A stretch of 64,000 bases of DNA from an uncultured Oscillospiraceae bacterium (lineage in GTDB: Bacteria > Bacillota > Clostridia > Oscillospirales > Ruminococcaceae). The notes under the pieces are model-generated. The model saw nothing but the letters and a program-made list of their open reading frames with translations, was not told the DNA's origin and ran no database searches. This document shows, one piece after another, positions 19,098-41,374 of this stretch. The position numbers and the translations under genes are program-made. The stretch lies in contig CAJFOJ010000034.1 in NCBI GenBank assembly GCA_904396495.1, positions 113 to 64,112 of the forward strand, in the 5' to 3' direction. Positions within the stretch are counted from its first letter, which is position 1; every line of letters begins with the position of its first letter.

Positions 19098-19973
19098 ATG
19101 GTGATACATGTAGTAAAGCAAGGCGATAGCGTCTACTCGGTGGCACAGGAATACGGAGTCTCACCGGACCGCCTGCTCATTGACAACGGGCTGAACGACG
19201 CGTCGGAACTAGTCGTCGGTCAGACTCTGGTAATCCTTTACCCAGCCCAGATACATACCGTCAGGGCGGGGGAGACCCTCCGTTCCATCGCATTGCAATA
19301 CGGCTCTACTGTGACGCAGATTTACCGCAACAACCCCCAACTCCAGGCGCTGCCATCACTGATGGAGGGGGAGGAACTGGTGATTTCCTTCCAGCAGCAG
19401 AAAGAGGGTGTTATGTCGGTTAACGGTTACGCCTATGCTTTTATCGATCGAGACCTCTATCGGGAAACACTGCCGTACTTAAGCTATGTGACCCCTTTTA
19501 CCTACGGGTTTACCTCATTAGGGGAATTGGTGGATCTGGACGATGAATTTATGATTGCAGAGGCCCGGGATTACGGCGTGGCCCCGCTGATGCATCTTTC
19601 CACCCTGACGGAAGAAGGGGGATTCAGCAACGAGCTTGCCCATGTGGTTCTCAACGACATGCAGGTACAGGCAAGGCTTATCAACAACATCATCTCCGCC
19701 ATGCGGAGGAAAAACTATTACGGCTTAGACGTGGACTTCGAGTATGTCTTTCCGGAAGATCGGGACGCCTATACTGCCTTTGTGCGGAACCTGCGCAATC
19801 GCTTAAACCCCCTGGGCTATGAGGTGACGGTGGCCCTGGCTCCCAAGACCTCCGCCAACCAACAGGGGCTCCTCTATCAAGGACATGACTTTCGCGGCCT
19901 AGGGCAGGCGGCTAATTGGGTGCTTTTGATGACCTATGAATGGGGGTACACCTACGGCCCTCTTAATGTATAA
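19098..19973 (+). CDS. 5' segment of a split 2xLysM-GH18 (YaaH/SleL-type spore peptidoglycan hydrolase) gene; reading frame runs 13 nt into the inserted element
   Basis: Two LysM repeats (VKQGDSVYSVAQEYGV..., VRAGETLRSIALQYGS...). GH18 catalytic stretch GLDVDFEY. Host sequence ends at YEWGYTYGP (19960). Confidence 0.8.
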   Translation: MVIHVVKQGDSVYSVAQEYGVSPDRLLIDNGLNDASELVVGQTLVILYPAQIHTVRAGETLRSIALQYGSTVTQIYRNNPQLQALPSLMEGEELVISFQQQKEGVMSVNGYAYAFIDRDLYRETLPYLSYVTPFTYGFTSLGELVDLDDEFMIAEARDYGVAPLMHLSTLTEEGGFSNELAHVVLNDMQVQARLINNIISAMRRKNYYGLDVDFEYVFPEDRDAYTAFVRNLRNRLNPLGYEVTVALAPKTSANQQGLLYQGHDFRGLGQAANWVLLMTYEWGYTYGPLNV

Positions 19974-20585: not shown

Positions 20586-21632
20586 ATGAAAAACATATTA
20601 CCAGTTGAATATCCGATTGTCACTGGATATCCTGTAATTGCCAATGCGCTTTCTGTTTTACAGACTCGAAAAGAAACAATGAACTGGATTTTATTAAATC
20701 TAATAGTTCCAATTGTGCTGTATGATGCGGAAAATAACAAAGTGCTTTTAGATTTAGGCGGCGATCATACCCCATGGAATACGAGGTATCTGTATGATGA
20801 TTGCCCATTTTTAACTATTTATCGATATGATAGAACTTGGCTTTATGAACAAAATTTTGATATCATCGATTTTGTCAGGTGGAATATTGATCGGCAACAA
20901 TATTTATATACAGATGTTTGCCGGCGATATATATCTGAATATCAGTGTAATGAGTTAGATAAAATGCATGATTTATTTGTATATGGATATGACGACGAGG
21001 AGAAATCTTTTCATATTGCTGATTTTTTTTACGGGCAGAAATATCATCATGTTACAATTCCTTATAATAACTATAAAACCGCTTTTGATGCCGTAGAAAA
21101 GTATAATTTGCCCCATCGTATTGAGCAAACAACAGATATCGTTGTAATTGCGCACAGAGAACTATTCAATACGTGGTTATCGATTGATTATGAAAATCGA
21201 AATTTTGTTTTAGGAGCTCTAAAAGAGCGACTCTTAGAGTGCCTTGGAAAAACTAATACAAGTTATATGAGACTATGGGATAAAAAACTTGCTTATGGCA
21301 TTAATGGGTATACGTTATTAGAACGATATCTCGAAGATAAAAATTTTTATGACACACAGTTTTCTTACTATAATTGTATATGCGTTCAGTTTTTGCTTGA
21401 GCATAAACAGGTTCTTACCAAAATTTGCAACGACATATTAAAAAATGAGTCGCTTATCCAGGAAGGTGAGAATTTGGTCAAAAGCGCAACTATTTTTAAA
21501 AGGCTCATACTAAAGGCGATGGTAAAAAACAGTTGTACATATAATCAACGACAGAATATAGTGATACTTTTGCGTGAGATGAAAGCACGGGAAATATCCT
21601 TGCTCGAAAATATGCTTAGGGCTATTGGCTAA
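20586..21632 (+). CDS. Hypothetical protein, first gene of the AT-rich cargo cluster
   Basis: 348-aa ORF after GAGAAAGG. Only weak cue is HDLFVYGYDDEEKSFHIADFF, a His-containing strand pair reminiscent of papain-fold enzymes. No confident family. Confidence 0.5.
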   Translation: MKNILPVEYPIVTGYPVIANALSVLQTRKETMNWILLNLIVPIVLYDAENNKVLLDLGGDHTPWNTRYLYDDCPFLTIYRYDRTWLYEQNFDIIDFVRWNIDRQQYLYTDVCRRYISEYQCNELDKMHDLFVYGYDDEEKSFHIADFFYGQKYHHVTIPYNNYKTAFDAVEKYNLPHRIEQTTDIVVIAHRELFNTWLSIDYENRNFVLGALKERLLECLGKTNTSYMRLWDKKLAYGINGYTLLERYLEDKNFYDTQFSYYNCICVQFLLEHKQVLTKICNDILKNESLIQEGENLVKSATIFKRLILKAMVKNSCTYNQRQNIVILLREMKAREISLLENMLRAIG

Positions 21633-21912
21633 GAAGTCTGGATATTTTGCCTCAAAAAAAACCATGTTAAATGATCTTTTAGGTTATGCAACACAGTTGA
21701 GCCGCTTTAATTATTTATAATAAAACAGGAATCTGGTTTTAGAATTGCGGCATTTTTCCTTAGCTGTTTGTAGTAGATGGTGCTTTCTATTCATATAAGT
21801 TGTATATAAAATGATGGAGTGGAAAATTTTCTAGATATTTCATTATATATTTTATGAATACTAATTTTTCAATTATCCAAGTAAACTTTTATAATTGTTG
21901 AAGGAGAATCAT

Positions 21913-23580
21913 ATGAATCGATTTAGTGCTTTAAGATGGTGTCTGAGTCTGATGAGAAAAAATATTATAAAATTTATTTTATTAACTATTTTTTCTACTC
22001 TACTAGGAGTATGCGTGGTCTCTGTGTCAATCATTATGAAGTTATTTATGGATATTGCAACTGGTGCTAATACCATTCCTTTGTATATTGGAATTATTAT
22101 ATCCTGTGTTACGTTATTGATTTTAGGATTCTCACAAATTATGACATGCAAGTATCAAGGAAAACTTTTTAGCGACATAGAAATTGGAGTACGGAATACA
22201 ATTGTAAAAAAAATATATTCGGTTTATCTATTAACGTTCGACAGTAACCCATCCAATTTTTATTTTACTCGTCTGACAAAAGACACGGAAATTATCTCTA
22301 ACTTTTTTTCGAATACTTTAGTGAGTAACATTTTCTTTGAATGCTTTACTTTTCTGATTAGTCTAATACTGATGTTTGTATTGGAGTGGAGACTGACAAC
22401 GGTCTTAGCCATTATTGTTCCTATCCTAATTTTTATAATGATAAAAATATCTCCCAAACTTGAATTATATAATAAGTTGATTTTAACAGATGAGGAAGAA
22501 AACAGAAATGTTATTCAGGATTTTTTAAATCGATATCTTCTATTTAAATCTTATGGTATGCAGAAAAACACAAAGCAGAAAATAAATGATAGTTATGAGC
22601 ACAAGCGCAAAAATATTGACCATCTAAGTATTACAAAAGGCTTAATTGGATTTCTAAACAATTTTTTGGGCGTTGGAATGTTTATAATTGCATTATCCTT
22701 CGGAGCGTTTTTAGTGGCCAATGGAAAAACAACTGTAGGTACTTTGGTTGCAGTAGTAAATTTGGTCAGTTTTTATTATGGCCCATTTCTACACATTTCA
22801 GGATGGCTTTCCGATATAAACTCGGTAAAGGCTTCTGTCAACAGAATTGGAGAAATCTTGAGTATGCCTACTGAAAACGTTCCTGATGATAAAAAATATG
22901 AAAAATTGACTTCTACAAAAGAAGTTAATTTACAGGCAAATAATATTTACTTTTCTTACAATGAAAATAAATCGATTTTACACGGTCTCAACTTAATTGC
23001 ATCAAAAGGTGAAATTGTTGCGATTGTTGGAGAAAATGGAAGTGGGAAAAGTACCCTTCTAAAAATTTTAATGGGTTTTTATCAACCTAATCAGGGAAAC
23101 GTAAACATAGAAATTGACGGCAATAAATTTTCTGGGGTTAGTCTGCGAGATCACATCGTTTATGATCCAAGCGATATTTCCGTATTTGCAGGAACTGTTC
23201 AGGATAATATATGTATGAGTTCAGGTTATGACGCTGATCGATTTAATCAGGCAGTTAGCTGTGCAAATCTAGAAGAATTTATAAAAGAAAAAACGGTTCG
23301 GTACGCTATTGATTCTTCTGGTAACAATTTGTCTAGTGGACAAAAGAAAAGAATATCTTTAGCACGAGTGTTTTATAGCAATAGAGATGTCATTATTTTA
23401 GATGAACCAACGACAAATCTGGATGAGCAGTCAATTGAAGAGCTTTGGATTTCTTTAAAAAACATTAGTGCGAATAAAATCTGCCTGGTGGTGACGCATG
23501 ATCAGTCATTTGCATTGCGTTGCGACCGAGTATTAAAATTGTTAAATAAACAATTGGTTGAGGTGAAAAAAAATGCATGA
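21913..23580 (+). CDS. ABC exporter, fused permease + ATPase (no C39 peptidase domain)
   Basis: Six hydrophobic segments, then Walker A GENGSGKST, signature LSSGQKKR and Walker B ILDEPT. Start after GAAGGAGAA. Confidence 0.85.
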   Translation: MNRFSALRWCLSLMRKNIIKFILLTIFSTLLGVCVVSVSIIMKLFMDIATGANTIPLYIGIIISCVTLLILGFSQIMTCKYQGKLFSDIEIGVRNTIVKKIYSVYLLTFDSNPSNFYFTRLTKDTEIISNFFSNTLVSNIFFECFTFLISLILMFVLEWRLTTVLAIIVPILIFIMIKISPKLELYNKLILTDEEENRNVIQDFLNRYLLFKSYGMQKNTKQKINDSYEHKRKNIDHLSITKGLIGFLNNFLGVGMFIIALSFGAFLVANGKTTVGTLVAVVNLVSFYYGPFLHISGWLSDINSVKASVNRIGEILSMPTENVPDDKKYEKLTSTKEVNLQANNIYFSYNENKSILHGLNLIASKGEIVAIVGENGSGKSTLLKILMGFYQPNQGNVNIEIDGNKFSGVSLRDHIVYDPSDISVFAGTVQDNICMSSGYDADRFNQAVSCANLEEFIKEKTVRYAIDSSGNNLSSGQKKRISLARVFYSNRDVIILDEPTTNLDEQSIEELWISLKNISANKICLVVTHDQSFALRCDRVLKLLNKQLVEVKKNA

Positions 23581-26125: not shown

Positions 26126-26211
26126 ACATTACATTTTCTAAAACTCCGTAATCCTGATTTTAAGCGCGTTTTAATGATCATGGATATTTGATAATGAAAG
26201 GAGGGACAATA

Positions 26212-26289
26212 ATGAAGTTGTTGAAAAAGAACAAAGTACAGCATAAAGCGGTACTGAATCAAGAGTTTGTTTGCTTTGGAGTTTGCTAA
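26212..26289 (+). CDS. Candidate RiPP precursor peptide, 25 aa: MKLLKKNKVQHKAVLNQEFVCFGVC
   Basis: Not in the ORF track (too short). SD AAAGGAGGG (26197-26205) lies 6 nt before the ATG. Basic leader, C-terminal CFGVC. Sits between the rSAM/ACP genes and the protease gene. Confidence 0.6.
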   Translation: MKLLKKNKVQHKAVLNQEFVCFGVC

Positions 26290-26322: not shown

Positions 26323-26349
26323 ATAAGGGCGGCACTAAGCTGCCCTTAT
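26323..26349 (+). terminator. Hairpin after the precursor sORF (attenuator-type partial terminator)
   Basis: 11-bp stem ATAAGGGCGGC/GCTGCCCTTAT with loop ACTAA and a weak U-tract. The next gene's RBS (AAGGAG) follows immediately. Confidence 0.45.
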
Positions 26350-28781: not shown

Positions 28782-29348
28782 TCAATTTCCGGATAGAAGT
28801 ACCGAGTTTTTTAATAAACTTGAATATAATAATCTTGTTTTGGGATTGCACAATGCCACTAATTTATTTACATCCTTAAAACTGCTGGCAACTATCATTT
28901 TATTTTGAGTGGTAAGATAAATTAAAACTTTTTTGTTCTGTGAAATCAGATTAATAATATTATTTAAGGTTCCTCGGCTTTCTCCGTCCCAAATCATAAA
29001 ACCATAATCAGCCTCATTAGCCATTGCTATGTCTTTCTGCTTATAGAAATCAAAGCCTCGCACATTGGAGGGCACCGAAACATTATGGATATTCCAACGT
29101 CCAACATTATTTCGTGCTTTTCCATTGCTTGCAAACACGATTACGTTATTATATCCCAGTTGATAATAAAAATTTTGCACGGAAGTGTCTACACCATAAC
29201 AGTCTCCTACAAGTACATCATAACCCTTTTGATAAATAGACATCATTTTTTTTTGAACAGAAGCATCTAAACTTTTTACAGACCTTGCTCCAGCTATAAA
29301 AATTTTCACGGTATAGGTACTCCTTTCAGCATTATTTTGTTTTTGCAA
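28782..29348 (-). CDS. SLOG/DprA-like Rossmann-fold protein (ShosA-like candidate antitoxin)
   Basis: IFIAGARS...YDVLVGDCYGVDTSVQ...VIVFASNG...EADYGFMIWDGESRGTLNNI pattern of DprA/SLOG folds. An alternative GTG start at 29309 follows GAAAGGAG. Confidence 0.55.
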   Translation of the reverse strand: MQKQNNAERSTYTVKIFIAGARSVKSLDASVQKKMMSIYQKGYDVLVGDCYGVDTSVQNFYYQLGYNNVIVFASNGKARNNVGRWNIHNVSVPSNVRGFDFYKQKDIAMANEADYGFMIWDGESRGTLNNIINLISQNKKVLIYLTTQNKMIVASSFKDVNKLVALCNPKTRLLYSSLLKNSVLLSGN

Positions 29349-29901
29349 TGGCTAAGTAATATACTTTTTCAATAAGGGGATCGCTCTTTAATACTGATAC
29401 ACACTCATTTGCTGTTTCGCCAGAAGAATAAAAATCATCAATTAGCAATATATTACAGTGCCTTTTTGCTTCTTTCAGTTTTACAATAGATCCTTTTAGC
29501 GATTTTGAATCTTTTGGCATATTTTTTGCTGGATTACTGTCTATCTTTTTTAAAACTTCCTCAGAATATGGAATACGTAATTTTGAAGCGATGGATTCAG
29601 CGATCATATATACAGGCTGACTAAGTCTTTCGGAAGTTGGTGGTGCAGGAAGAATGATATCTATTTTTATGTCAGATAACCATTGTTTTAAAACATCACA
29701 GCAAATCCCTGCGATTTCATTACTCGTATCAAAATGACCGTTATATTTCATAGCGTGTAGCAATGTGCCTATTGTAGTATAGGAAGTATTGAACTGTGGA
29801 TGCCCAAAAACATCATCGCCAATATATTCGCTTGACTCAACGTATTTATCAATAACAAGACCTTCATCCCAAAGTCCAGTAACAAAAAGGACAGAATTCA
29901 T
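29332..29901 (-). CDS. Type I phosphoribosyltransferase (ComF-like; ShosT-like candidate toxin)
   Basis: PRPP-binding signature ILLIDDFYSSGETANE. Start chosen at the ATG after AGGTGA; the track ORF extends to 29952. Confidence 0.65.
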   Translation of the reverse strand: MNSVLFVTGLWDEGLVIDKYVESSEYIGDDVFGHPQFNTSYTTIGTLLHAMKYNGHFDTSNEIAGICCDVLKQWLSDIKIDIILPAPPTSERLSQPVYMIAESIASKLRIPYSEEVLKKIDSNPAKNMPKDSKSLKGSIVKLKEAKRHCNILLIDDFYSSGETANECVSVLKSDPLIEKVYYLAIAKTK

Positions 29902-29994
29902 GATTATGTTCACCTGCATCTTTCCATAATTATAATATCGCAAAATTGTCAAAAAATCAATGTCCGGTTATCTTTTTCGAAATACAGTTAGATA

Positions 29995-31365
29995 TCACGG
30001 AACAATCGCGCCGCTGCCATCGGTCTGAAGCATCTGGCACTCCTTGATGTCTCCATAGGATTCCTCAAAGAAATAGTAATCCTTGCCTGCAATGGTGCGG
30101 AAGCCTCTGGCTGCGTTTCCTTTGCCTGGCTCAAAGTAGTACCACCTGCCGCCAATCTGCTGCCAGCCTTCCAGCATGGCTCCACTGTCGCTCAGATAAT
30201 ACCATTCGCCTTTCTCTTCCAGCCACCCGGTTTTCATGGCTCCACCCGCATTGAGATAGTACCAGACATTTCCAACCTTGCACCAGCCTATTGCCATCTC
30301 GCCGTTGGATTTGAGGTAATACCATTTGTTCTGGTCGAAAAGCCAGCCTGTCGCCATAGCTCCGCTGGATTTTAAGAAATACCACTTGCCGTCCACCTCG
30401 ACCCAGCCGGTCGCCATGTAGCCGTCGGAATTGAGATAGTACCAAATCCCCTGGACTTTCTTCCAGCCCACCACGTCTTTTCCGTTTTCCCGGTAACGCC
30501 ATTTTCCCGACTGCTTGTACCAGCCCTCAGCGGGTGCAGGCGGTGTGACAGGCTCTTTTCCCGTTTCCAGCAGTTTGCCGTCTATGTACACCCCGTCGAT
30601 TGCCCACGCCTCAAAGAGTGGCAGGGGAAAGTTGTTGCGCTGGCTCCAGGTGACGATGCTGTAGGGCATGGTGAAGAGCCCCTTTTTCCCGAAGCCCTCC
30701 CCCCAGGAATTCAAAACGGTGAATCCATCTTTGTCCCAGCCGACAATCAGCATCATGTGGCCGCCCGCCATGGGTTCCAGGCTTGTGCCGTCGATGCGGG
30801 GCTCCGGCATAATCGGGTTTGTATCCGAAATCTCATAGAAGCTTTTGAATACAATTGTGCCTACTAAAACCGGATACCCGTTGTATACCGCCTGTTTTAC
30901 CTCTTCCGCACCCATGCACTGGTAGTAGTTTTTGATGCGGATATTCTGGGCTTCGTCCTTGAACTGGCTGTATTTGCTGTTAAAGGTGTGCATGGCTTCC
31001 ACCATTTCTTCTTCAAAGGGATACCGGGCAAAGGCAAGGCCTCCGTCTTTCTGAGCGGCTTTCAAAAGGCCTCTCGCCTCTGTCCCTTCTCCCTGGTATT
31101 CGGTGTGTCTCCGGTTGCCGTAGTACCAGGGAAAACTGATGGGTTCGTATTTTCCCGCCTTGCTGAGCAGGATCTCCACACAGGCGCTGAGTGCGTGTGT
31201 GCCGCAGTTTTGGTATTCGCCCTGGTCGTGTACCTGGATGCCGGAAACGTCCAACTGAAAGCTCTCCGGCAGCGGCTCCGCGCCGTATGTAGCCCCAAAG
31301 ATAAAGTCTCTCGGGTCTGGCTCTGTTTGGATGAGGCCAAGGCCTCTGTTTTCATATTCGCTCAT
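29995..31365 (-). CDS. Lysin: papain-like (C1-type) cysteine peptidase domain + about 9 cell-wall-binding (CW_binding_1/choline-binding-type) repeats
   Basis: QGEYQNCGTHALS (Cys), GGHMMLIVGW (His) and LNSWGEGFGKKG. Repeats of the GW..(x)GKWYYL.. type span aa 283-440 (nt about 29998-30519). Confidence 0.75.
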   Translation of the reverse strand: MSEYENRGLGLIQTEPDPRDFIFGATYGAEPLPESFQLDVSGIQVHDQGEYQNCGTHALSACVEILLSKAGKYEPISFPWYYGNRRHTEYQGEGTEARGLLKAAQKDGGLAFARYPFEEEMVEAMHTFNSKYSQFKDEAQNIRIKNYYQCMGAEEVKQAVYNGYPVLVGTIVFKSFYEISDTNPIMPEPRIDGTSLEPMAGGHMMLIVGWDKDGFTVLNSWGEGFGKKGLFTMPYSIVTWSQRNNFPLPLFEAWAIDGVYIDGKLLETGKEPVTPPAPAEGWYKQSGKWRYRENGKDVVGWKKVQGIWYYLNSDGYMATGWVEVDGKWYFLKSSGAMATGWLFDQNKWYYLKSNGEMAIGWCKVGNVWYYLNAGGAMKTGWLEEKGEWYYLSDSGAMLEGWQQIGGRWYYFEPGKGNAARGFRTIAGKDYYFFEESYGDIKECQMLQTDGSGAIVP

Positions 31366-34628: not shown

Positions 34629-34670
34629 TTGATAGTCTAGCCTTACTTATGTATAGTATAAGTAAGGCTA
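34629..34670 (+). promoter_or_regulatory. Near-consensus sigma-A-type promoter overlapped by a perfect 13-bp palindrome (candidate operator) upstream of the recombinase
   Basis: TTGATA (34629-34634), 17-nt spacer, TATAGT (34652-34657). Palindrome TAGCCTTACTTAT (34638-34650) / ATAAGTAAGGCTA (34658-34670). Confidence 0.5.
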
Positions 34671-34717
34671 AAACTTTAGGGGTTTCTTTCGTTTTGCGGA
34701 AAGGAGAAAGAAACTAC

Positions 34718-36310
34718 ATGAATGTTGCAGCGTATTGTAGAGTATCAACCGATGAGGAGGATCAAAAAAACAGTTTTGAGAGTCAGAAGTTATATTTTGA
34801 GAATTATATAAACAATAATCCAGAATGGAGCCTGGTAAATATTTATGCTGATGAAGGAATTACAGGTACAAACACTAAAAAAAGAGTTCAATTCCAAAAA
34901 ATGATTAATGACGCTTCTAAAGGGATCATCGATCTTATTTTGACGAAAGAAGTTTCACGCTTTGCCAGAAACACTGTAGATACTCTATCTTACACAAGAC
35001 AACTAAAATCATGGAACGTAGGGGTGATATTTTTATCAGATAATATCAACACGCTTGATAACGATGGAGAGTTGCGTTTAACAATCATGGCATCTATGGC
35101 TCAAGAGGAGTCGAGAAAGACGTCTGAACGTGTCAAATGGGGAATAAAGCGTAAAATGGAAAACGGGTTTGTTTTTGCTCCGGATCTTTTAGGATACGAT
35201 GTGAGAAATGGCAAGATATCGATTAACGAGGAAGAAGCTGTTACAGTCAGGAAGATTTTCGATATGTTTACAAACCAGAAAAAATCTGCACATGCCATAG
35301 CCAAAGAATTCACAGAGCAAGGAATAGAACCGGTAAAAAGAATGAAATCTTGGTCGTCAACCACTATTTATAGGATACTAAAAAACGAGAAATACGTTGG
35401 GGATTTATTACAAAAAAAGAAAATTACAGAAGATTTCCTATCTCACAAATTAGTCGATAACGATGGGCAAGAGGAAAAAATATTTATTGCGAATCATCAT
35501 GACCCAATTATAGACAGAGAATTGTGGGAAGAAACTCAAAGGATCATTACTTTAAATAAACTTACTAACCAAAGAGATAAAGTGTCTAATGTCTACTGGT
35601 GCTCCGGTAAAATTATTTGTGGATTATGTGGCAAACACTTTTCAATAAGGGCGAAAAAGCTCAAGAGCGGCAGGATCGTCAGGTCGTGGAAGTGTATTGA
35701 AAGGATGCATTTTGGTGTCAAAAAGATCAATGGTCTGGGCAAAGAAATAGGGTGTGACAATCCTTATATAAATCAAATTGCCTTAGAGAATTGTATCAAA
35801 TTTGCATTATCAAAGATATTGACGATAAATCAAGAAGATATTCTAAAAGATCTTAAAAGCTACATTGATTCATTATCCCGTAATGACGACTCAGAGGATG
35901 CCGAAATTGATCTTTTAAACAAAAAGATCAAAGAATCTGAAAAGAAAAAATTAAAAATAATAAAAATGTATATCGATGAACAAATTGAAGAATCGGAAAT
36001 GATGAAACTAAAGGAACAATATGATGTCGAAATAGACAAAATGAAGAAAAGAATTTTATTATTAATGCAACAAAAAAAGTCATCAACCCAAACGTATAAC
36101 TCCATTGATAATATTTTTAATAAAGTGAAAGATATTGTCGAAAATGAAAAGTATTACAACGAAAACTTTTATAATAAAATAGTTGATAAAATGGTTGCGT
36201 TTCCAGGAATAATCGACATTTATTTTAGAAATTTTCCGATACCAATTAAAGTTAAGTACCAGACAAAAGGTAGAGGAAAAAGCTATCAAACACTGTGTGA
36301 GTTAGTTTGA
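34718..36310 (+). CDS. Large serine recombinase (integrase/excisionase of the element)
   Basis: AAYCRVSTDEEDQ catalytic Ser region, SRFARN, recombinase domain, zinc-ribbon Cys pairs (CSGKIICGLCG ... WKC) and a long coiled-coil tail. Start after GGAAAGGAGAAAG. Confidence 0.9.
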   Translation: MNVAAYCRVSTDEEDQKNSFESQKLYFENYINNNPEWSLVNIYADEGITGTNTKKRVQFQKMINDASKGIIDLILTKEVSRFARNTVDTLSYTRQLKSWNVGVIFLSDNINTLDNDGELRLTIMASMAQEESRKTSERVKWGIKRKMENGFVFAPDLLGYDVRNGKISINEEEAVTVRKIFDMFTNQKKSAHAIAKEFTEQGIEPVKRMKSWSSTTIYRILKNEKYVGDLLQKKKITEDFLSHKLVDNDGQEEKIFIANHHDPIIDRELWEETQRIITLNKLTNQRDKVSNVYWCSGKIICGLCGKHFSIRAKKLKSGRIVRSWKCIERMHFGVKKINGLGKEIGCDNPYINQIALENCIKFALSKILTINQEDILKDLKSYIDSLSRNDDSEDAEIDLLNKKIKESEKKKLKIIKMYIDEQIEESEMMKLKEQYDVEIDKMKKRILLLMQQKKSSTQTYNSIDNIFNKVKDIVENEKYYNENFYNKIVDKMVAFPGIIDIYFRNFPIPIKVKYQTKGRGKSYQTLCELV

Positions 36311-36317
36311 AATCGCC

Positions 36318-36335
36318 ATATTATACCTTAACACC
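36318..36335 (+). repeat. attR element-side arm ATATTATACCTTAACA plus core CC
   Basis: Inverted partner of 19961-19976. Host coding sequence resumes at 36336. Confidence 0.65.
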
Positions 36336-36756
36336 GCCAATGGCGGTAAGCCCCATCGATAAAGTCCGGGAAGTGCTGGATTACGCTGTCACCGAAATCG
36401 ATTCAAAAAAAATTTTTTTAGGAGTACCCAATTATGGCTACGATTGGATGCTTCCCTTTGTACAGGGTGAATCCAGGGCTACTCTGATTTCCAATGTCCA
36501 CGCTGTGGAGCTCGCCCGACAGTACGGTGCGGAGATTCAGTTTGATGAGACTGCGCAAGCTCCCTTTTTCCGTTATTATGACAGGCAGGGTAGGCAGCAC
36601 GAGGTCTGGTTTGAGGATGCCCGCAGCATCCGCAGAAAGCTTCAACTGGTTCCCGAATACGGTTTTCAGGGGGTGGGTTATTGGAACCTGATGCGCCCGT
36701 TTCCGCAAAACTGGACAGTTTTAAATGCTCTTTACCATATTCGCAAAATTTTGTAA
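36336..36756 (+). CDS. 3' segment of the split LysM-GH18 (YaaH/SleL-type) gene
   Basis: (P)PMAVSPIDKVREVLDYA...LGVPNYGYDW...GVGYWNL is the C-terminal half of a GH18 barrel. It is in frame with 19098-19960. The track ORF from 36307 uses an element-derived TTG. Confidence 0.8.
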
Positions 36757-39250: not shown

Positions 39251-41374
39251 ATGATGTACAAGCAAAAGAAGAATCCAGATACCAGTACATTACTGACTGC
39301 AGCAAATGATGGGAAGAAAAGGCATAAATTACTTGAGCACTGGAAAATCATCGCATTCTATCTATTTATGTACGATATTTTCGCCATAAATTTTTCTTAT
39401 TTTTTAGGGCTATGGATGCGTTTTGACTTTTACTTTTCCAATATTCCCAGGGAATATCTCGATGCCTTTTTAAAATTTGCACCCTTTTATACCATTTTTT
39501 CCCTGTCTGTTTTTTATATTTTAAAGCTTTATAACAGCATATGGCGCTTTGCCAGCTTTAATGAATTAAATCGGATTGTTGCTGCGACGCTGATCACGAC
39601 AGTATTTCACACTGTGACGATCACGATATTTGTTAAACGGATGCCGATATCCTATTATGTTGTGGGGGCAATGGCCCAGCTTTTGCTGACCGTTGCCATA
39701 CGGTTTGGCTACCGTTATTTTTTGCTGGAACGGAAAAGACGGCAAAAGATTGCACAAGCGGAAAAACATGTGATGATTGTTGGAGCTGGTGCGGCCGGAC
39801 AGGTGCTTTTGCGGGAACTTCTGCACTCTAAACAGGCGGAAGCAAAGCCCTGCTGTCTCATCGACGACAATTCCAATAAATGGGGACGGTTTATCGAAGG
39901 GGTACCCATCGTCGGTGGTCGGGACGACATTTTAGTCAATGCGAAAAAGTACAAGATTGACCAAATTTTATTTGCCATTCCTACAGCGACTGCGGAGCAG
40001 AGACGTGATATCCTAAATATCTGCAAAGAAACCGGATGTGAACTGAAACGATTACCGGGTATGTACCAATTGGTCAACGGCGAAGTTTCGTTGAGCAAAA
40101 TGAAATCGGTTGCGGTAGAAGACCTGCTTGGCAGGGCTCCTATCAAGGTCAATATGGACGAAATCTTCCAATATATACGGGGAAAAACAATCCTTGTAAC
40201 GGGAGGCGGCGGTTCCATAGGCAGCGAGCTCTGCCGGCAGATTGCAGGGCATGAACCCAAAATGCTCATCATTTTTGATATCTATGAGAATAACGCCTAT
40301 GCCATTGAGCAGGAACTGAAGACCAGCCATCCTGATTTGAACTTAAAAGTGCTCATTGGCTCCGTCCGAGACAGTAAAAGGATTAACAGCGTGTTTTCAC
40401 AGTATAAACCGGACATCGTCTATCACGCTGCCGCTCATAAGCATGTCCCCTTGATGGAAGAAAGTCCCTGTGAGGCCATCAAAAACAATGTGGTCGGCAC
40501 TTATAAGACGGCGTACGCCGCACTGCAATACGGTTGCCGAAAGTTTGTGCTCATCAGTACCGACAAGGCAGTTAACCCCACCAACATCATGGGGGCCAGC
40601 AAGCGGTTATGTGAAATGATTATCCAAAGTATGGAAAAAGTGAGCCGGGAGGGACGAAAAGATTGGTTGCCTCTCATCGGGGTATCTAACAGTGATGGGA
40701 CAGTACTGCACGACGCGGAAGGACAGCCTCACGTGAATGAAATTAAAAACGAGGCAAATAGGCAGACGAGAACGGAATTTGTTGCCGTTCGTTTTGGCAA
40801 TGTGTTGGGCAGCAACGGTTCGGTGATCCCGCTTTTTCGCAAGCAAATCGAACGAGGCGGCCCAGTTACGGTGACACATCCGGACATTATCCGTTATTTT
40901 ATGACCATTCCGGAGGCGGTCAGCCTGGTGATGCAGGCGGGCGTCTACGCCAAAGGCGGGGAGATTTTTGTCTTGGACATGGGAGCTCCAGTCAAAATCG
41001 ATACCTTGGCGCGGAATTTAATCAAGCTTTCCGGTTATAAACCGGATGTGGATATCAAAATCGTTTACACTGGCCTCCGTCCAGGAGAGAAGTTGTACGA
41101 GGAAAAACTGATGGCAGAAGAGGGCTTGGAGAAAACACCGAATGAGCTTATTCACATCGGCAAGCCGATTCCTTTTGATGTGGAACAGTTTTTTAGTCAA
41201 TTGGAGGCACTGACCAAGCTAAGCTATGAGGAAAGCCCTTTAATACCTCAGATGGTGGAAGCGATGGTGCCGACCTACCATTCCCCAGAATCAGATTTGG
41301 AATCCTGCCAAGAGGTCTATAAAGATTTGATAAAACAAGCCTCGGCTTCTCGTGGAGAGAAGTATTTTGCGTAA
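39251..41374 (+). CDS. Membrane-bound UDP-sugar 4,6-dehydratase (CapD/PglF/EpsC family)
   Basis: Four N-terminal TMs, two Rossmann motifs (VGAGAAG, VTGGGGSIGSEL), YHAAAHKHVP and RFGNVLGS. Confidence 0.85.
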   Translation: MMYKQKKNPDTSTLLTAANDGKKRHKLLEHWKIIAFYLFMYDIFAINFSYFLGLWMRFDFYFSNIPREYLDAFLKFAPFYTIFSLSVFYILKLYNSIWRFASFNELNRIVAATLITTVFHTVTITIFVKRMPISYYVVGAMAQLLLTVAIRFGYRYFLLERKRRQKIAQAEKHVMIVGAGAAGQVLLRELLHSKQAEAKPCCLIDDNSNKWGRFIEGVPIVGGRDDILVNAKKYKIDQILFAIPTATAEQRRDILNICKETGCELKRLPGMYQLVNGEVSLSKMKSVAVEDLLGRAPIKVNMDEIFQYIRGKTILVTGGGGSIGSELCRQIAGHEPKMLIIFDIYENNAYAIEQELKTSHPDLNLKVLIGSVRDSKRINSVFSQYKPDIVYHAAAHKHVPLMEESPCEAIKNNVVGTYKTAYAALQYGCRKFVLISTDKAVNPTNIMGASKRLCEMIIQSMEKVSREGRKDWLPLIGVSNSDGTVLHDAEGQPHVNEIKNEANRQTRTEFVAVRFGNVLGSNGSVIPLFRKQIERGGPVTVTHPDIIRYFMTIPEAVSLVMQAGVYAKGGEIFVLDMGAPVKIDTLARNLIKLSGYKPDVDIKIVYTGLRPGEKLYEEKLMAEEGLEKTPNELIHIGKPIPFDVEQFFSQLEALTKLSYEESPLIPQMVEAMVPTYHSPESDLESCQEVYKDLIKQASASRGEKYFA

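Follow-up and report, generated by a model that had tools for sequence, protein, structure and literature searches.

What does a cluster of peptide-modifying enzymes act on when no gene for a substrate has been annotated beside it? Gene sets of five parts, namely a radical S-adenosylmethionine (rSAM) enzyme, a TIGR04066 protein, a protein related to acyl carrier proteins (ACPs), a subtilase and an ATP-binding cassette (ABC) transporter, were earlier proposed to be bacteriocin maturation systems (PMC4573289, PMC10731318), and a survey that met this architecture in Roseburia reported no obvious structural gene (PMC4573289). The same question is raised by a 64,000-nucleotide stretch of DNA from an uncultured Oscillospiraceae bacterium (GenBank assembly GCA_904396495.1, contig CAJFOJ010000034.1; henceforth the window), in which two rSAM genes and an ACP-like gene are followed by a spacer and then by a gene for a subtilisin-family (S8) protease. 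A first-pass annotation of this DNA had picked out a small open reading frame (sORF) of 25 codons in that spacer as a possible precursor. We find that the sORF is very probably a real gene, encoding the precursor of a ribosomally synthesized peptide with post-translational modifications (RiPP), a reading to which we give a probability of roughly 80%. Most likely, the peptide would be cross-linked through cysteine, trimmed by the S8 protease and exported.

A conserved 25-codon sORF with a strong ribosome-binding site

Direct translation of window positions 26212-26289 on the forward strand gives MKLLKKNKVQHKAVLNQEFVCFGVC followed by a stop, and a Shine-Dalgarno (SD) sequence stands a short distance upstream of the ATG (Table 1). 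The coordinates, the SD sequence and the translation agree with the first-pass annotation, as does the placing of two rSAM genes on the 5' side and a protease gene on the 3' side. The peptide is laid out as a Lys-rich leader, approximately residues 1-14, followed by a C-terminal part of the form L15-N16-x-E18-F-x-C21-F22-G-x-C25. Across both strands of the window there are 25 ATGs with a GGAGG 5-16 nt upstream, four of which open reading frames of 15-45 codons; three of these lie inside long open reading frames, and the sORF is the only intergenic one.

In order to find relatives, we used the protein encoded directly downstream, a fusion of an S8 protease with a DUF1611-type domain (henceforth the fusion protein), in a word-indexed search, which returned eight protein clusters, and we then inspected their contigs. 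The gene order common to these contigs is ABC transporter, rSAM, rSAM, ACP-like, a spacer of ~250 nt and the S8-DUF1611 fusion, and every such spacer holds a sORF with its own GGAGG site. In total, the peptide is known in six distinct versions, each encoded between an ACP-like gene and a fusion gene: that of the window and five others, found in contigs L001/2/3 (MKLMKKKKVQQKAVLNQEFTCFGLC), L004/5 (MKLLKKKKVQFEVILNTEFVCFGLC), L006 (MKKLRKLRKTNYKAILNAEFTCFNALC, identical in L015), L016 from a Faecalimonas metagenome-assembled genome (MAG; MKRLKKIRKSSSKAVLNVELVCFNGLC) and L094 ((M)KLKKRNKQQSMVTLNTEFVCFGLC, with a GTG start). The flanking fusion proteins, where the gene is on the contig, are 33-65% identical. 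L094 was the one true new member from a scan of metagenomes with a back-translated pattern of the sORF, and it carries genes for a 48%-identical rSAM enzyme and a 45%-identical ACP-like protein 5' of the sORF and a hairpin 3' of it. Two JGI contigs also matched the 36-nt pattern, at WYLNQEFYCFGLC and a stop (L095 2508-2543 and L096 7429-7464); these have no start codon, SD sequence or cluster genes and were rejected as one chance match, which indicates that the C-terminal motif is not diagnostic by itself. A metagenome scan with a single fusion protein gave no matches.

Alignment of the six versions shows that L15, N16, E18, C21, F22 and a terminal (L/V)C are kept throughout. Among the three versions of 25 codons (window, L001 and L004), 6/11, 6/13 and 9/16 of the codons that differ do so synonymously, and the synonymous changes include codons for L15, E18, C21 and F22. 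Because synonymous changes fall at conserved codons, the alignment points to selection on the sORF at the level of the protein. AT-rich DNA abounds in short open reading frames, and this one went unreported by every gene caller, as would be expected of a chance reading frame in an AT-rich spacer; its being the only intergenic sORF with a GGAGG in the window and the existence of six syntenic versions under purifying selection effectively refute that explanation. The sORF also has what is generally looked for in a RiPP precursor gene, being a short reading frame with translation signals that lies between the ACP-like and S8 genes and 3' of two rSAM genes. The proposal that it supplies the substrate of the neighbouring rSAM enzymes is thus supported by its conservation beside orthologous clusters.

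The alignments do not support the delimitation of the core, which had been placed in the last seven residues (FVCFGVC) and so omits the invariant L15, N16 and E18. Because these three residues are invariant, and because a wider family of precursors (described below) carries the motif (V/A)xLY..E before its first Cys, the alignments indicate that the functional C-terminal part comprises at least ten residues (NQEFVCFGVC) or that the junction of leader and core lies inside those residues.

The window peptide and six relatives matched no NCBIfam model at E-values up to 10 and no Pfam family, and an exact look-up of ten short precursors (25-33 aa) among ~15 billion sequences, RefSeq genomes included, found none of them as a called protein, likely because 25-33 codons fall under gene-calling limits. 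Longer relatives (41-50 aa) do occur in that collection, where they are named just 'hypothetical protein'.

A wider family of precursors with a shared leader

When one genome of each GTDB species was scanned for a pattern from the alignment of fusion proteins, S8-DUF1611 fusions were identified at 170 loci, most of them in Clostridia MAGs (Lachnospiraceae, Oscillospiraceae, Acetatifactor). Further hosts are Paenibacillus polysaccharolyticus, Tumebacillus flagellatus, Fumia xinanensis, Lutispora thermophila and Longibaculum muris, as well as Treponema and Latescibacterota MAGs. The extreme rarity suggested by the eight clusters of the word-indexed search is ruled out by this count. Since the fusions at all 170 loci are at most 34% identical to the one in the window, it is the window's own subfamily that is rare.

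At most of the Firmicute loci, one to three sORFs with strong SD sequences lie near the cluster genes, often directly 5' of the fusion gene; they are Lys-rich and their C-termini contain Cys, as exemplified by MKKLVKPKKVNNNVVLYGESNYKCS, MKKKLLKPKKSSSKITLYKEKGVHCC (three variants within one locus), MKKALKKPQAVVVANVQAYDNEGCNNCWC and MKKKLSKPRKAKTNRAVLYWGENCVFC. Twenty-three of these sORFs align on a leader MKK-L-KP-(6-9 residues)-V-x-L/A-Y-x-x-E. Between this leader and the first Cys their sequence is variable. The motif can be written MKK.LKKP...V.LY..E..C, with its Glu located 1-4 residues before the first Cys. A hidden Markov model (HMM) of the leader, trained without the window's subfamily, found precursors at 37 or more of the 96 loci fetched (duplicates included) and ranked the window sORF first of the 2552 sORF start variants in the window. 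A conserved leader joined to a hypervariable Cys-containing core is a hallmark of a RiPP family, and here both features, together with co-conservation with the maturases, recur over the six subfamily members and those loci. Compared with this family, the window peptide is the shortest form, with Asn replacing the family's Tyr.

Tandem precursor copies, two or three with identical leaders and slightly differing cores, occur at L067 5165-5525, L036 2558-2744 and L008 2199-2645; those of Lutispora thermophila have cores ending ...KEKGVHCC, ...KEKGIWCC and ...KEKGVVCC. A second copy was sought in the window's island and none was found. Outside the Firmicutes, fusions are present in Latescibacterota (L071-L093) and Treponema (L047, L048, L054). 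The candidate precursors there are longer (~55-75 aa), acidic or aromatic and sometimes present in several copies per genome, but their leader still shows the motif M K.. L. K P Q R E.. N. V L A Y.

A stem-loop between the precursor and protease genes

The 11-bp hairpin that had been described between the sORF and the protease gene is present, with the form ATAAGGGCGGC-ACTAA-GCTGCCCTTAT and 11 pairs, one of them G-U. Directly 3' of it is a poor U-tract, AAUUUUAAGG; read as AAUUUUAAGGAG, this stretch also holds the ribosome-binding site of the protease gene. As a whole, the 78-nt spacer folds with the energy given in Table 1, where z is relative to dinucleotide shuffles. A hairpin follows the stop codon in five of the seven distinct relatives examined (the window, L001, L004, L016 and L094), with differing stem sequences; it is weak in L006 and absent in L007. 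In an alignment of the spacer DNA the SD sequence, the sORF and the hairpin are the only parts that align. As its stems differ, the hairpin is conserved by position. A comparison of the spacer with Rfam yielded no family, only two sub-threshold chance matches of 23-25 bits against the 50-56 needed. The hairpin is probably a partial terminator or an mRNA-stabilizing element. Its recurrence 3' of the stop fits the earlier idea that it favours expression of a precursor over that of the enzymes downstream, although none of the hairpins is a canonical terminator.

A short reading frame followed by a stable and positionally conserved hairpin directly 5' of the next gene is also what would be expected of a regulatory upstream reading frame or leader peptide, whose translation would, with the hairpin, control the protease gene and whose peptide would have no function of its own. 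We consider this very unlikely. Amino acids, including both Cys, Phe, Glu and Asn, are conserved through synonymous changes; 33 nt separate the stop from the hairpin, a distance at which a terminating ribosome would not affect it; no alternative pairing that could serve as an anti-terminator is apparent; and L006 and L007 retain the peptide without a strong hairpin. Moreover, the conserved N-terminus and hypervariable Cys-rich C-terminus of the wider family, sometimes in multiple copies (three in L067), resemble RiPP precursors and are unlike attenuators.

Enzymes encoded beside the sORF

Coordinates of the cluster genes are given in Table 1, and the counts that follow refer to 93 loci (duplicates included) at which co-occurrence with the fusion gene was assessed. 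The predicted maturase of the peptide is the 435-aa rSAM/SPASM protein, which has an N-terminal extension of ~95 aa ahead of its CxxxCxxC motif. Its best curated match is TIGR04463 ('rSAM_vs_C_rich'; 142.5 bits, cut-off 525), followed by Clo7bot (129.7, cut-off 600), CefB (117.9, cut-off 600), PapB (109, cut-off 340) and CcpM (TIGR04068; 90.6, cut-off 500, over residues 49-266 only); the SCIFF maturase (68, cut-off 425) and QhpD (55, cut-off 453) models match at lower scores. The nearest solved structure is that of the thioether-forming SCIFF maturase CteB (5wgg, E 6e-13). A CteB-like rSAM gene is present at 55/93 loci.

In the second rSAM/SPASM-like enzyme, of 330 aa, the position of the CxxxCxxC motif at residue 27 implies that there is no N-terminal peptide-binding extension. 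Its NCBIfam matches, all weak and below cut-off, are NirJ2, AhbD, ScmE, StsB and MftC, and its matches in the PDB are BlsE, SkfB and PqqE. Enzymes of this type occur at 9/93 loci and are confined to a subset of related clusters. Some relatives have a third rSAM gene (~305 aa) just 3' of the fusion gene (L006 11863-16574; L016 11791-12717; L007 2574-3434).

The sORF co-occurs with a CteB-like rSAM gene in every relative with a long enough contig. This bears on the explanation that the peptide is small, exported and left unmodified by the rSAM enzymes, whether disulfide-bonded or linear and hydrophobic, the enzymes acting on some other substrate. A disulfide between Cys21 and Cys25 is conceivable, and SacP23, a Paenibacillus polymyxa example of the related CLI_3235 system, was reported to be active when made heterologously in unmodified form (PMC10731318). 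Nevertheless, the proteins of the cluster are located in the cytoplasm, a compartment in which disulfides do not form, and the 10-kb AT-rich block contains no other candidate precursor; this explanation therefore seems very improbable to us.

The fusion protein (588 aa) is a subtilisin-like S8 protease in its N-terminal half, with QhpE as its best curated match (E 3e-19), and over residues 240-524 it matches TIGR04066 (E 1.8e-16, 60.1 bits against a 200-bit cut-off) as well as Pfam DUF1611. An alignment with eight homologues shows the subtilisin triad (D11, H39, S187) and a P-loop, GTGxRQGKF, to be invariant. The catalytic Asp comes as early as residue 11; the protease thus has neither a pro-domain nor a signal peptide and is expected to work in the cytoplasm. 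Foldseek searches with the AlphaFold model (predicted local distance difference test score, pLDDT, 85.8) returned the DUF1611 structures 2obn and 2g0t and the N-acetyltransferase DgcN (7xrj), and, as a second set, subtilisins including the RiPP proteases PagA and LicP. The dgcN gene has been described as the key gene of a D-glutamate pathway (PMC12363236).

Two further genes suggest chemistry that involves a carrier protein. The small ACP-like protein keeps the Asp-Ser phosphopantetheine motif, which is invariant when nine cluster homologues are aligned with E. coli AcpP; ACP-like genes were found at 24 and 34 of the 93 loci with two types of query. The 348-aa protein encoded at the start of the cluster has 739 homologues in a representative library, and 24 of 50 aligned members of its family match Pfam BtrH_N. 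Its Cys73, His128 and Asp146 are near-invariant, and the only significant Foldseek matches to its AlphaFold2 model (pLDDT 90.8) are AziU2/U3. A BtrH-like gene lies within 10 kb at 20/93 loci and is thus a recurrent accessory gene of these clusters. L006 also encodes an AMP-binding enzyme and a second PP-binding protein, a possible module for loading the carrier protein that the window lacks. The ABC gene is found at 83/93 loci.

Several related clusters directly adjoin complete agr-type cassettes, with genes for a LytTR regulator, a histidine kinase and AgrB and with a small AgrD-like ORF (L001 179-3026; L006 2278-5162; L010 4046-6888; L016 13728-16458). This proximity suggests regulation by quorum sensing, without implying that the product is itself a signal, the role that the first-pass annotation had put forward as possible. 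Together with the tiny, hydrophobic and Cys-containing character of the peptide, it is the ground on which the sORF might be read as an AgrD-like precursor of a thiolactone autoinducer. That seems extremely improbable: the relatives in question have separate AgrD-like ORFs of their own, the window contains no homologue of AgrB, of a LytTR regulator or of the kinase, and AgrD needs a charged C-terminal tail past its ring, whereas the window peptide ends at Cys25.

Table 1. Position of the sORF, its signals and the surrounding genes in the window
Feature	Position	Strand	Basis or remarks
LysM/GH18 gene, residues 1-288	19098-19961		
BtrH-like papain-fold protein, 348 aa (predicted)	20586-21632	+	no direct family match; family members, fold, conserved residues
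ABC exporter, permease and ATPase fused, 561 aa, without C39 peptidase	21895-23580	+	Pfam ABC_membrane 27-297, ABC_tran 362-507
Second rSAM/SPASM-like enzyme, 330 aa	23573-24565	+	CxxxCxxC at residue 27, then CX2CX5CX2C
Putative rSAM/SPASM peptide maturase, 435 aa	24559-25866	+	CxxxCxxC at residue 96, complete SPASM Cys motifs
ACP-like carrier protein, 92 aa	25847-26125	+	weak ACP and PP-binding matches; likely start ATG 25859
Shine-Dalgarno sequence AAAGGAGGG	26197-26205	+	read directly; 6-nt spacer ACAATA to ATG
Probable precursor gene, 25 codons	26212-26289	+	translation, syntenic homologues, synonymous changes, leader-HMM rank
Stem-loop between precursor and protease genes	26323-26349	+	fold -21.6 kcal/mol, z -3.5; positional conservation
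S8-DUF1611 fusion, 588 aa	26368-28134	+	NCBIfam, Pfam, AlphaFold2 model, Foldseek
Large serine recombinase (Resolvase, Recombinase, Zn-ribbon)	34649-36310		ends 12 nt from right junction
LysM/GH18 gene, residues 284-427	36322-36753		

A proposed maturation pathway

We propose the following route from sORF to product. The sORF with its signals, its conservation and synteny, each enzyme's fold and family and the conserved residues for catalysis and attachment are observed, and all of the chemistry is inferred. The operon mRNA would be translated efficiently from the strong ribosome-binding site, and the hairpin would raise the yield of precursor over that of the downstream protease, through partial termination or protection of an mRNA 3' end. 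The Lys-rich N-terminus (~14-16 residues) would act as a leader onto which the 435-aa CteB/PapB-like maturase docks with its N-terminal extension; this enzyme would then cross-link Cys21 and/or Cys25. Cys25 lies four residues after Cys21, the same spacing as in the PapA motif. Judging by the enzyme family, the likeliest cross-link would be a thioether to the carbon next to the carboxylate of the invariant Glu18 or of the C-terminus. PapB-type enzymes bond the sulfur of Cys to the carbon that neighbours a carboxylate, either that of an Asp/Glu side chain or the C-terminal one (PMC12373016), and by analogy with this linkage the acceptors would most likely be Glu18 and Cys25 with its free carboxylate. 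The extension-less 330-aa enzyme may add a further modification specific to the subfamily of the window and a few related ones; we do not count as evidence its weak resemblance to the decarboxylating rSAM enzymes AhbD, MftC and BlsE. The cytoplasmic S8 domain would remove the leader near the conserved L-N junction (elsewhere L-Y), and the ABC transporter would export a product of ~9-11 residues. The least certain step would be a carrier-dependent acyl transfer onto the peptide, possibly onto its freed N-terminus, in which the carrier protein would act with the DgcN-like domain and the BtrH-like protein.

Several observations weigh against this proposal or parts of it. Taken alone, the leader-HMM score of the window sORF is weak (8.7 bits, E 0.43; other members of its subfamily score 8-11 bits), and its membership in the wider family therefore rests on synteny and the shared motif. 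The hairpin, besides being weak or absent in two relatives, lacks a proper U-tract. All matches of the 435-aa enzyme to named maturases are far below their cut-offs, such that a reaction type is not transferable with confidence. In PapA the acceptor Asp/Glu is C-terminal to the Cys, whereas the conserved Glu here is N-terminal to it. Finally, neither an acyl-activating enzyme nor a phosphopantetheinyl transferase is encoded in the window cluster.

A more ambitious reading, which we offer tentatively and regard as doubtful in its entirety, would make the sORF the smallest representative of a RiPP class that has no name as yet, is widespread (170 loci, in Clostridia, Bacilli, Treponema and Latescibacterota) and couples rSAM cross-linking to carrier-protein chemistry. 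In relatives the product would be under agr control, and in the window the cluster is carried by an element that interrupts a sporulation gene. As part of this, the holo-ACP-like protein, the DgcN-type acyltransferase domain and the BtrH-like transferase may acylate, or otherwise act through the carrier on, the exposed N-terminal (Gln/Gly)-Glu of a product of ~9-11 residues. Such a combination of rSAM cross-linking with carrier-protein chemistry has not been described for any rSAM RiPP.

Comparison with known systems

The closest match in gene content is the CcpM/CLI_3235 'Cys-rich peptide' maturation system (TIGR04065-TIGR04069), which was defined in silico and has been noted in Roseburia intestinalis (PMC4573289) and Paenibacillus polymyxa (PMC10731318). 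The two have in common an rSAM/SPASM enzyme, an ACP-related protein, a protease of the subtilisin family, an ABC exporter and a small precursor that contains Cys. A TIGR04066/DUF1611-type protein also belongs to the CcpM set; its counterpart in the window is a domain with the DUF1611 fold that matches TIGR04066 below the cut-off. The differences are substantial, however. The matches to the CcpM and TIGR04066 models fall well short of their cut-offs, as noted above; the window ACP-like protein has no TIGR04069 match (E <=0.01; for a relative's protein, E <=10); and the precursors of the window and six relatives have no TIGR04065 match (E <=10). Furthermore, the TIGR04066-like domain is fused to the protease here and encoded separately there, the window cluster has a second rSAM enzyme and a BtrH-like protein in addition, and its precursor is of 25 aa with two Cys as opposed to ~61 aa with a 42-aa Cys-rich core in SacP23.

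With regard to mechanism, the nearest systems are the ranthipeptide pathways (CteB/thermocellin SCIFF, PapB/freyrasin and QhpD with QhpE). The 435-aa enzyme is nearest to CteB and matches the PapB, SCIFF and QhpD models, the best curated match of the protease domain is QhpE, and the window core offers Cys, a conserved Glu and a C-terminal carboxylate, the types of acceptor used by PapB (PMC12373016). On the other side, the enzyme falls below all family cut-offs, so that homology to CteB is clear but not at the family level; the Glu stands before the Cys and not after it; SCIFF precursors are of ~45 aa with six Cys, against 25 aa with two Cys here; and the carrier protein, DgcN-like domain and BtrH-like protein have no counterpart in ranthipeptide pathways, the cross-link in the present case being predicted from the genes. 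Going by the homology of its enzymes, the system probably operates in the manner of a ranthipeptide pathway, without family-level membership in any of the named maturase families.

The resemblance to acyl-transfer enzymes (BtrH of butirosin, AziU2/U3 and DgcN) is at the level of the fold. BtrH takes its acyl group from an acyl-ACP donor, BtrI in butirosin biosynthesis. In the window, the 348-aa family matches BtrH_N and the protein's model AziU2/U3, the fusion resembles DUF1611 structures and DgcN over its C-terminal half, and a holo-type carrier protein is encoded alongside; in contrast, identity is 12-15%, acyl activation has no dedicated enzyme in the cluster and the activity is predicted from the fold. 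As in lanthipeptide-style operons, a stem-loop stands between a small precursor gene with a strong SD sequence and the gene after it, although here the precursor gene lies 3' of the maturase genes and 5' of the protease gene, with a hairpin that has no U-tract. In the literature searched (rSAM enzymes with DUF1611, AgrB or BtrH; ranthipeptides with ACP and subtilisin; TIGR04463, OhkG, FlmE, Clo7bot and CefB), we found no characterized system of this composition.

These results give clusters of this type a structural gene. The sORF belongs to a widespread family that annotation pipelines have missed and that lies outside all curated protein-family models, and the shared leader motif offers a practical handle for mining the whole of it. 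A product of ~9-11 residues would rank among the smallest rSAM-modified peptides, and the combination of a carrier protein, a protease-fused DgcN-like domain and a BtrH-like protein points to uncharacterized chemistry. Many members, which derive from Lachnospiraceae and Oscillospiraceae of the gut, lie beside quorum-sensing cassettes; their products may therefore matter in interactions between microbes.

Genomic setting of the cluster

The block at 20.0-30.0 kb that contains the RiPP genes has a G+C content of 27-35% in a genome of ~50%. It forms part of an insertion of ~16.4 kb that splits a spore LysM/GH18 gene, which encodes 427 aa in 90%-identical relatives, and at whose right end lies a large serine recombinase gene (Table 1). 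The junctions of the element have no long repeat in common. By analogy, the element looks like a skin-type sporulation 'intervening element'. In composition it is a mosaic: the RiPP genes and an adjoining phosphoribosyltransferase gene lie in the block of 27-35% G+C, the content is ~50% over 30-34 kb, and it returns to ~35% over the recombinase. Within the ~50% part is a papain-family protease gene with choline-binding repeats (29995-31365, minus strand).

At the right end of the AT-rich block, two overlapping genes lie on the minus strand (28782-29348 and 29332-29952). One encodes the 206-aa phosphoribosyltransferase, which has PADLOC matches to PsyrT (E 1.5e-14) and ShosT, and its 188-aa partner gave no family match; the two are possibly a Shosta/PsyrTA-like defence or toxin-antitoxin pair. 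Elsewhere in the window, stretches of lower G+C (35-42%) at ~43-55 kb contain a series of genes for proteins of ~400 aa, and 39251-41374 encodes a polysaccharide-biosynthesis fusion (PseB/FnlA-like dehydratase and sugar transferase). Together these genes probably make up a capsule or exopolysaccharide locus.

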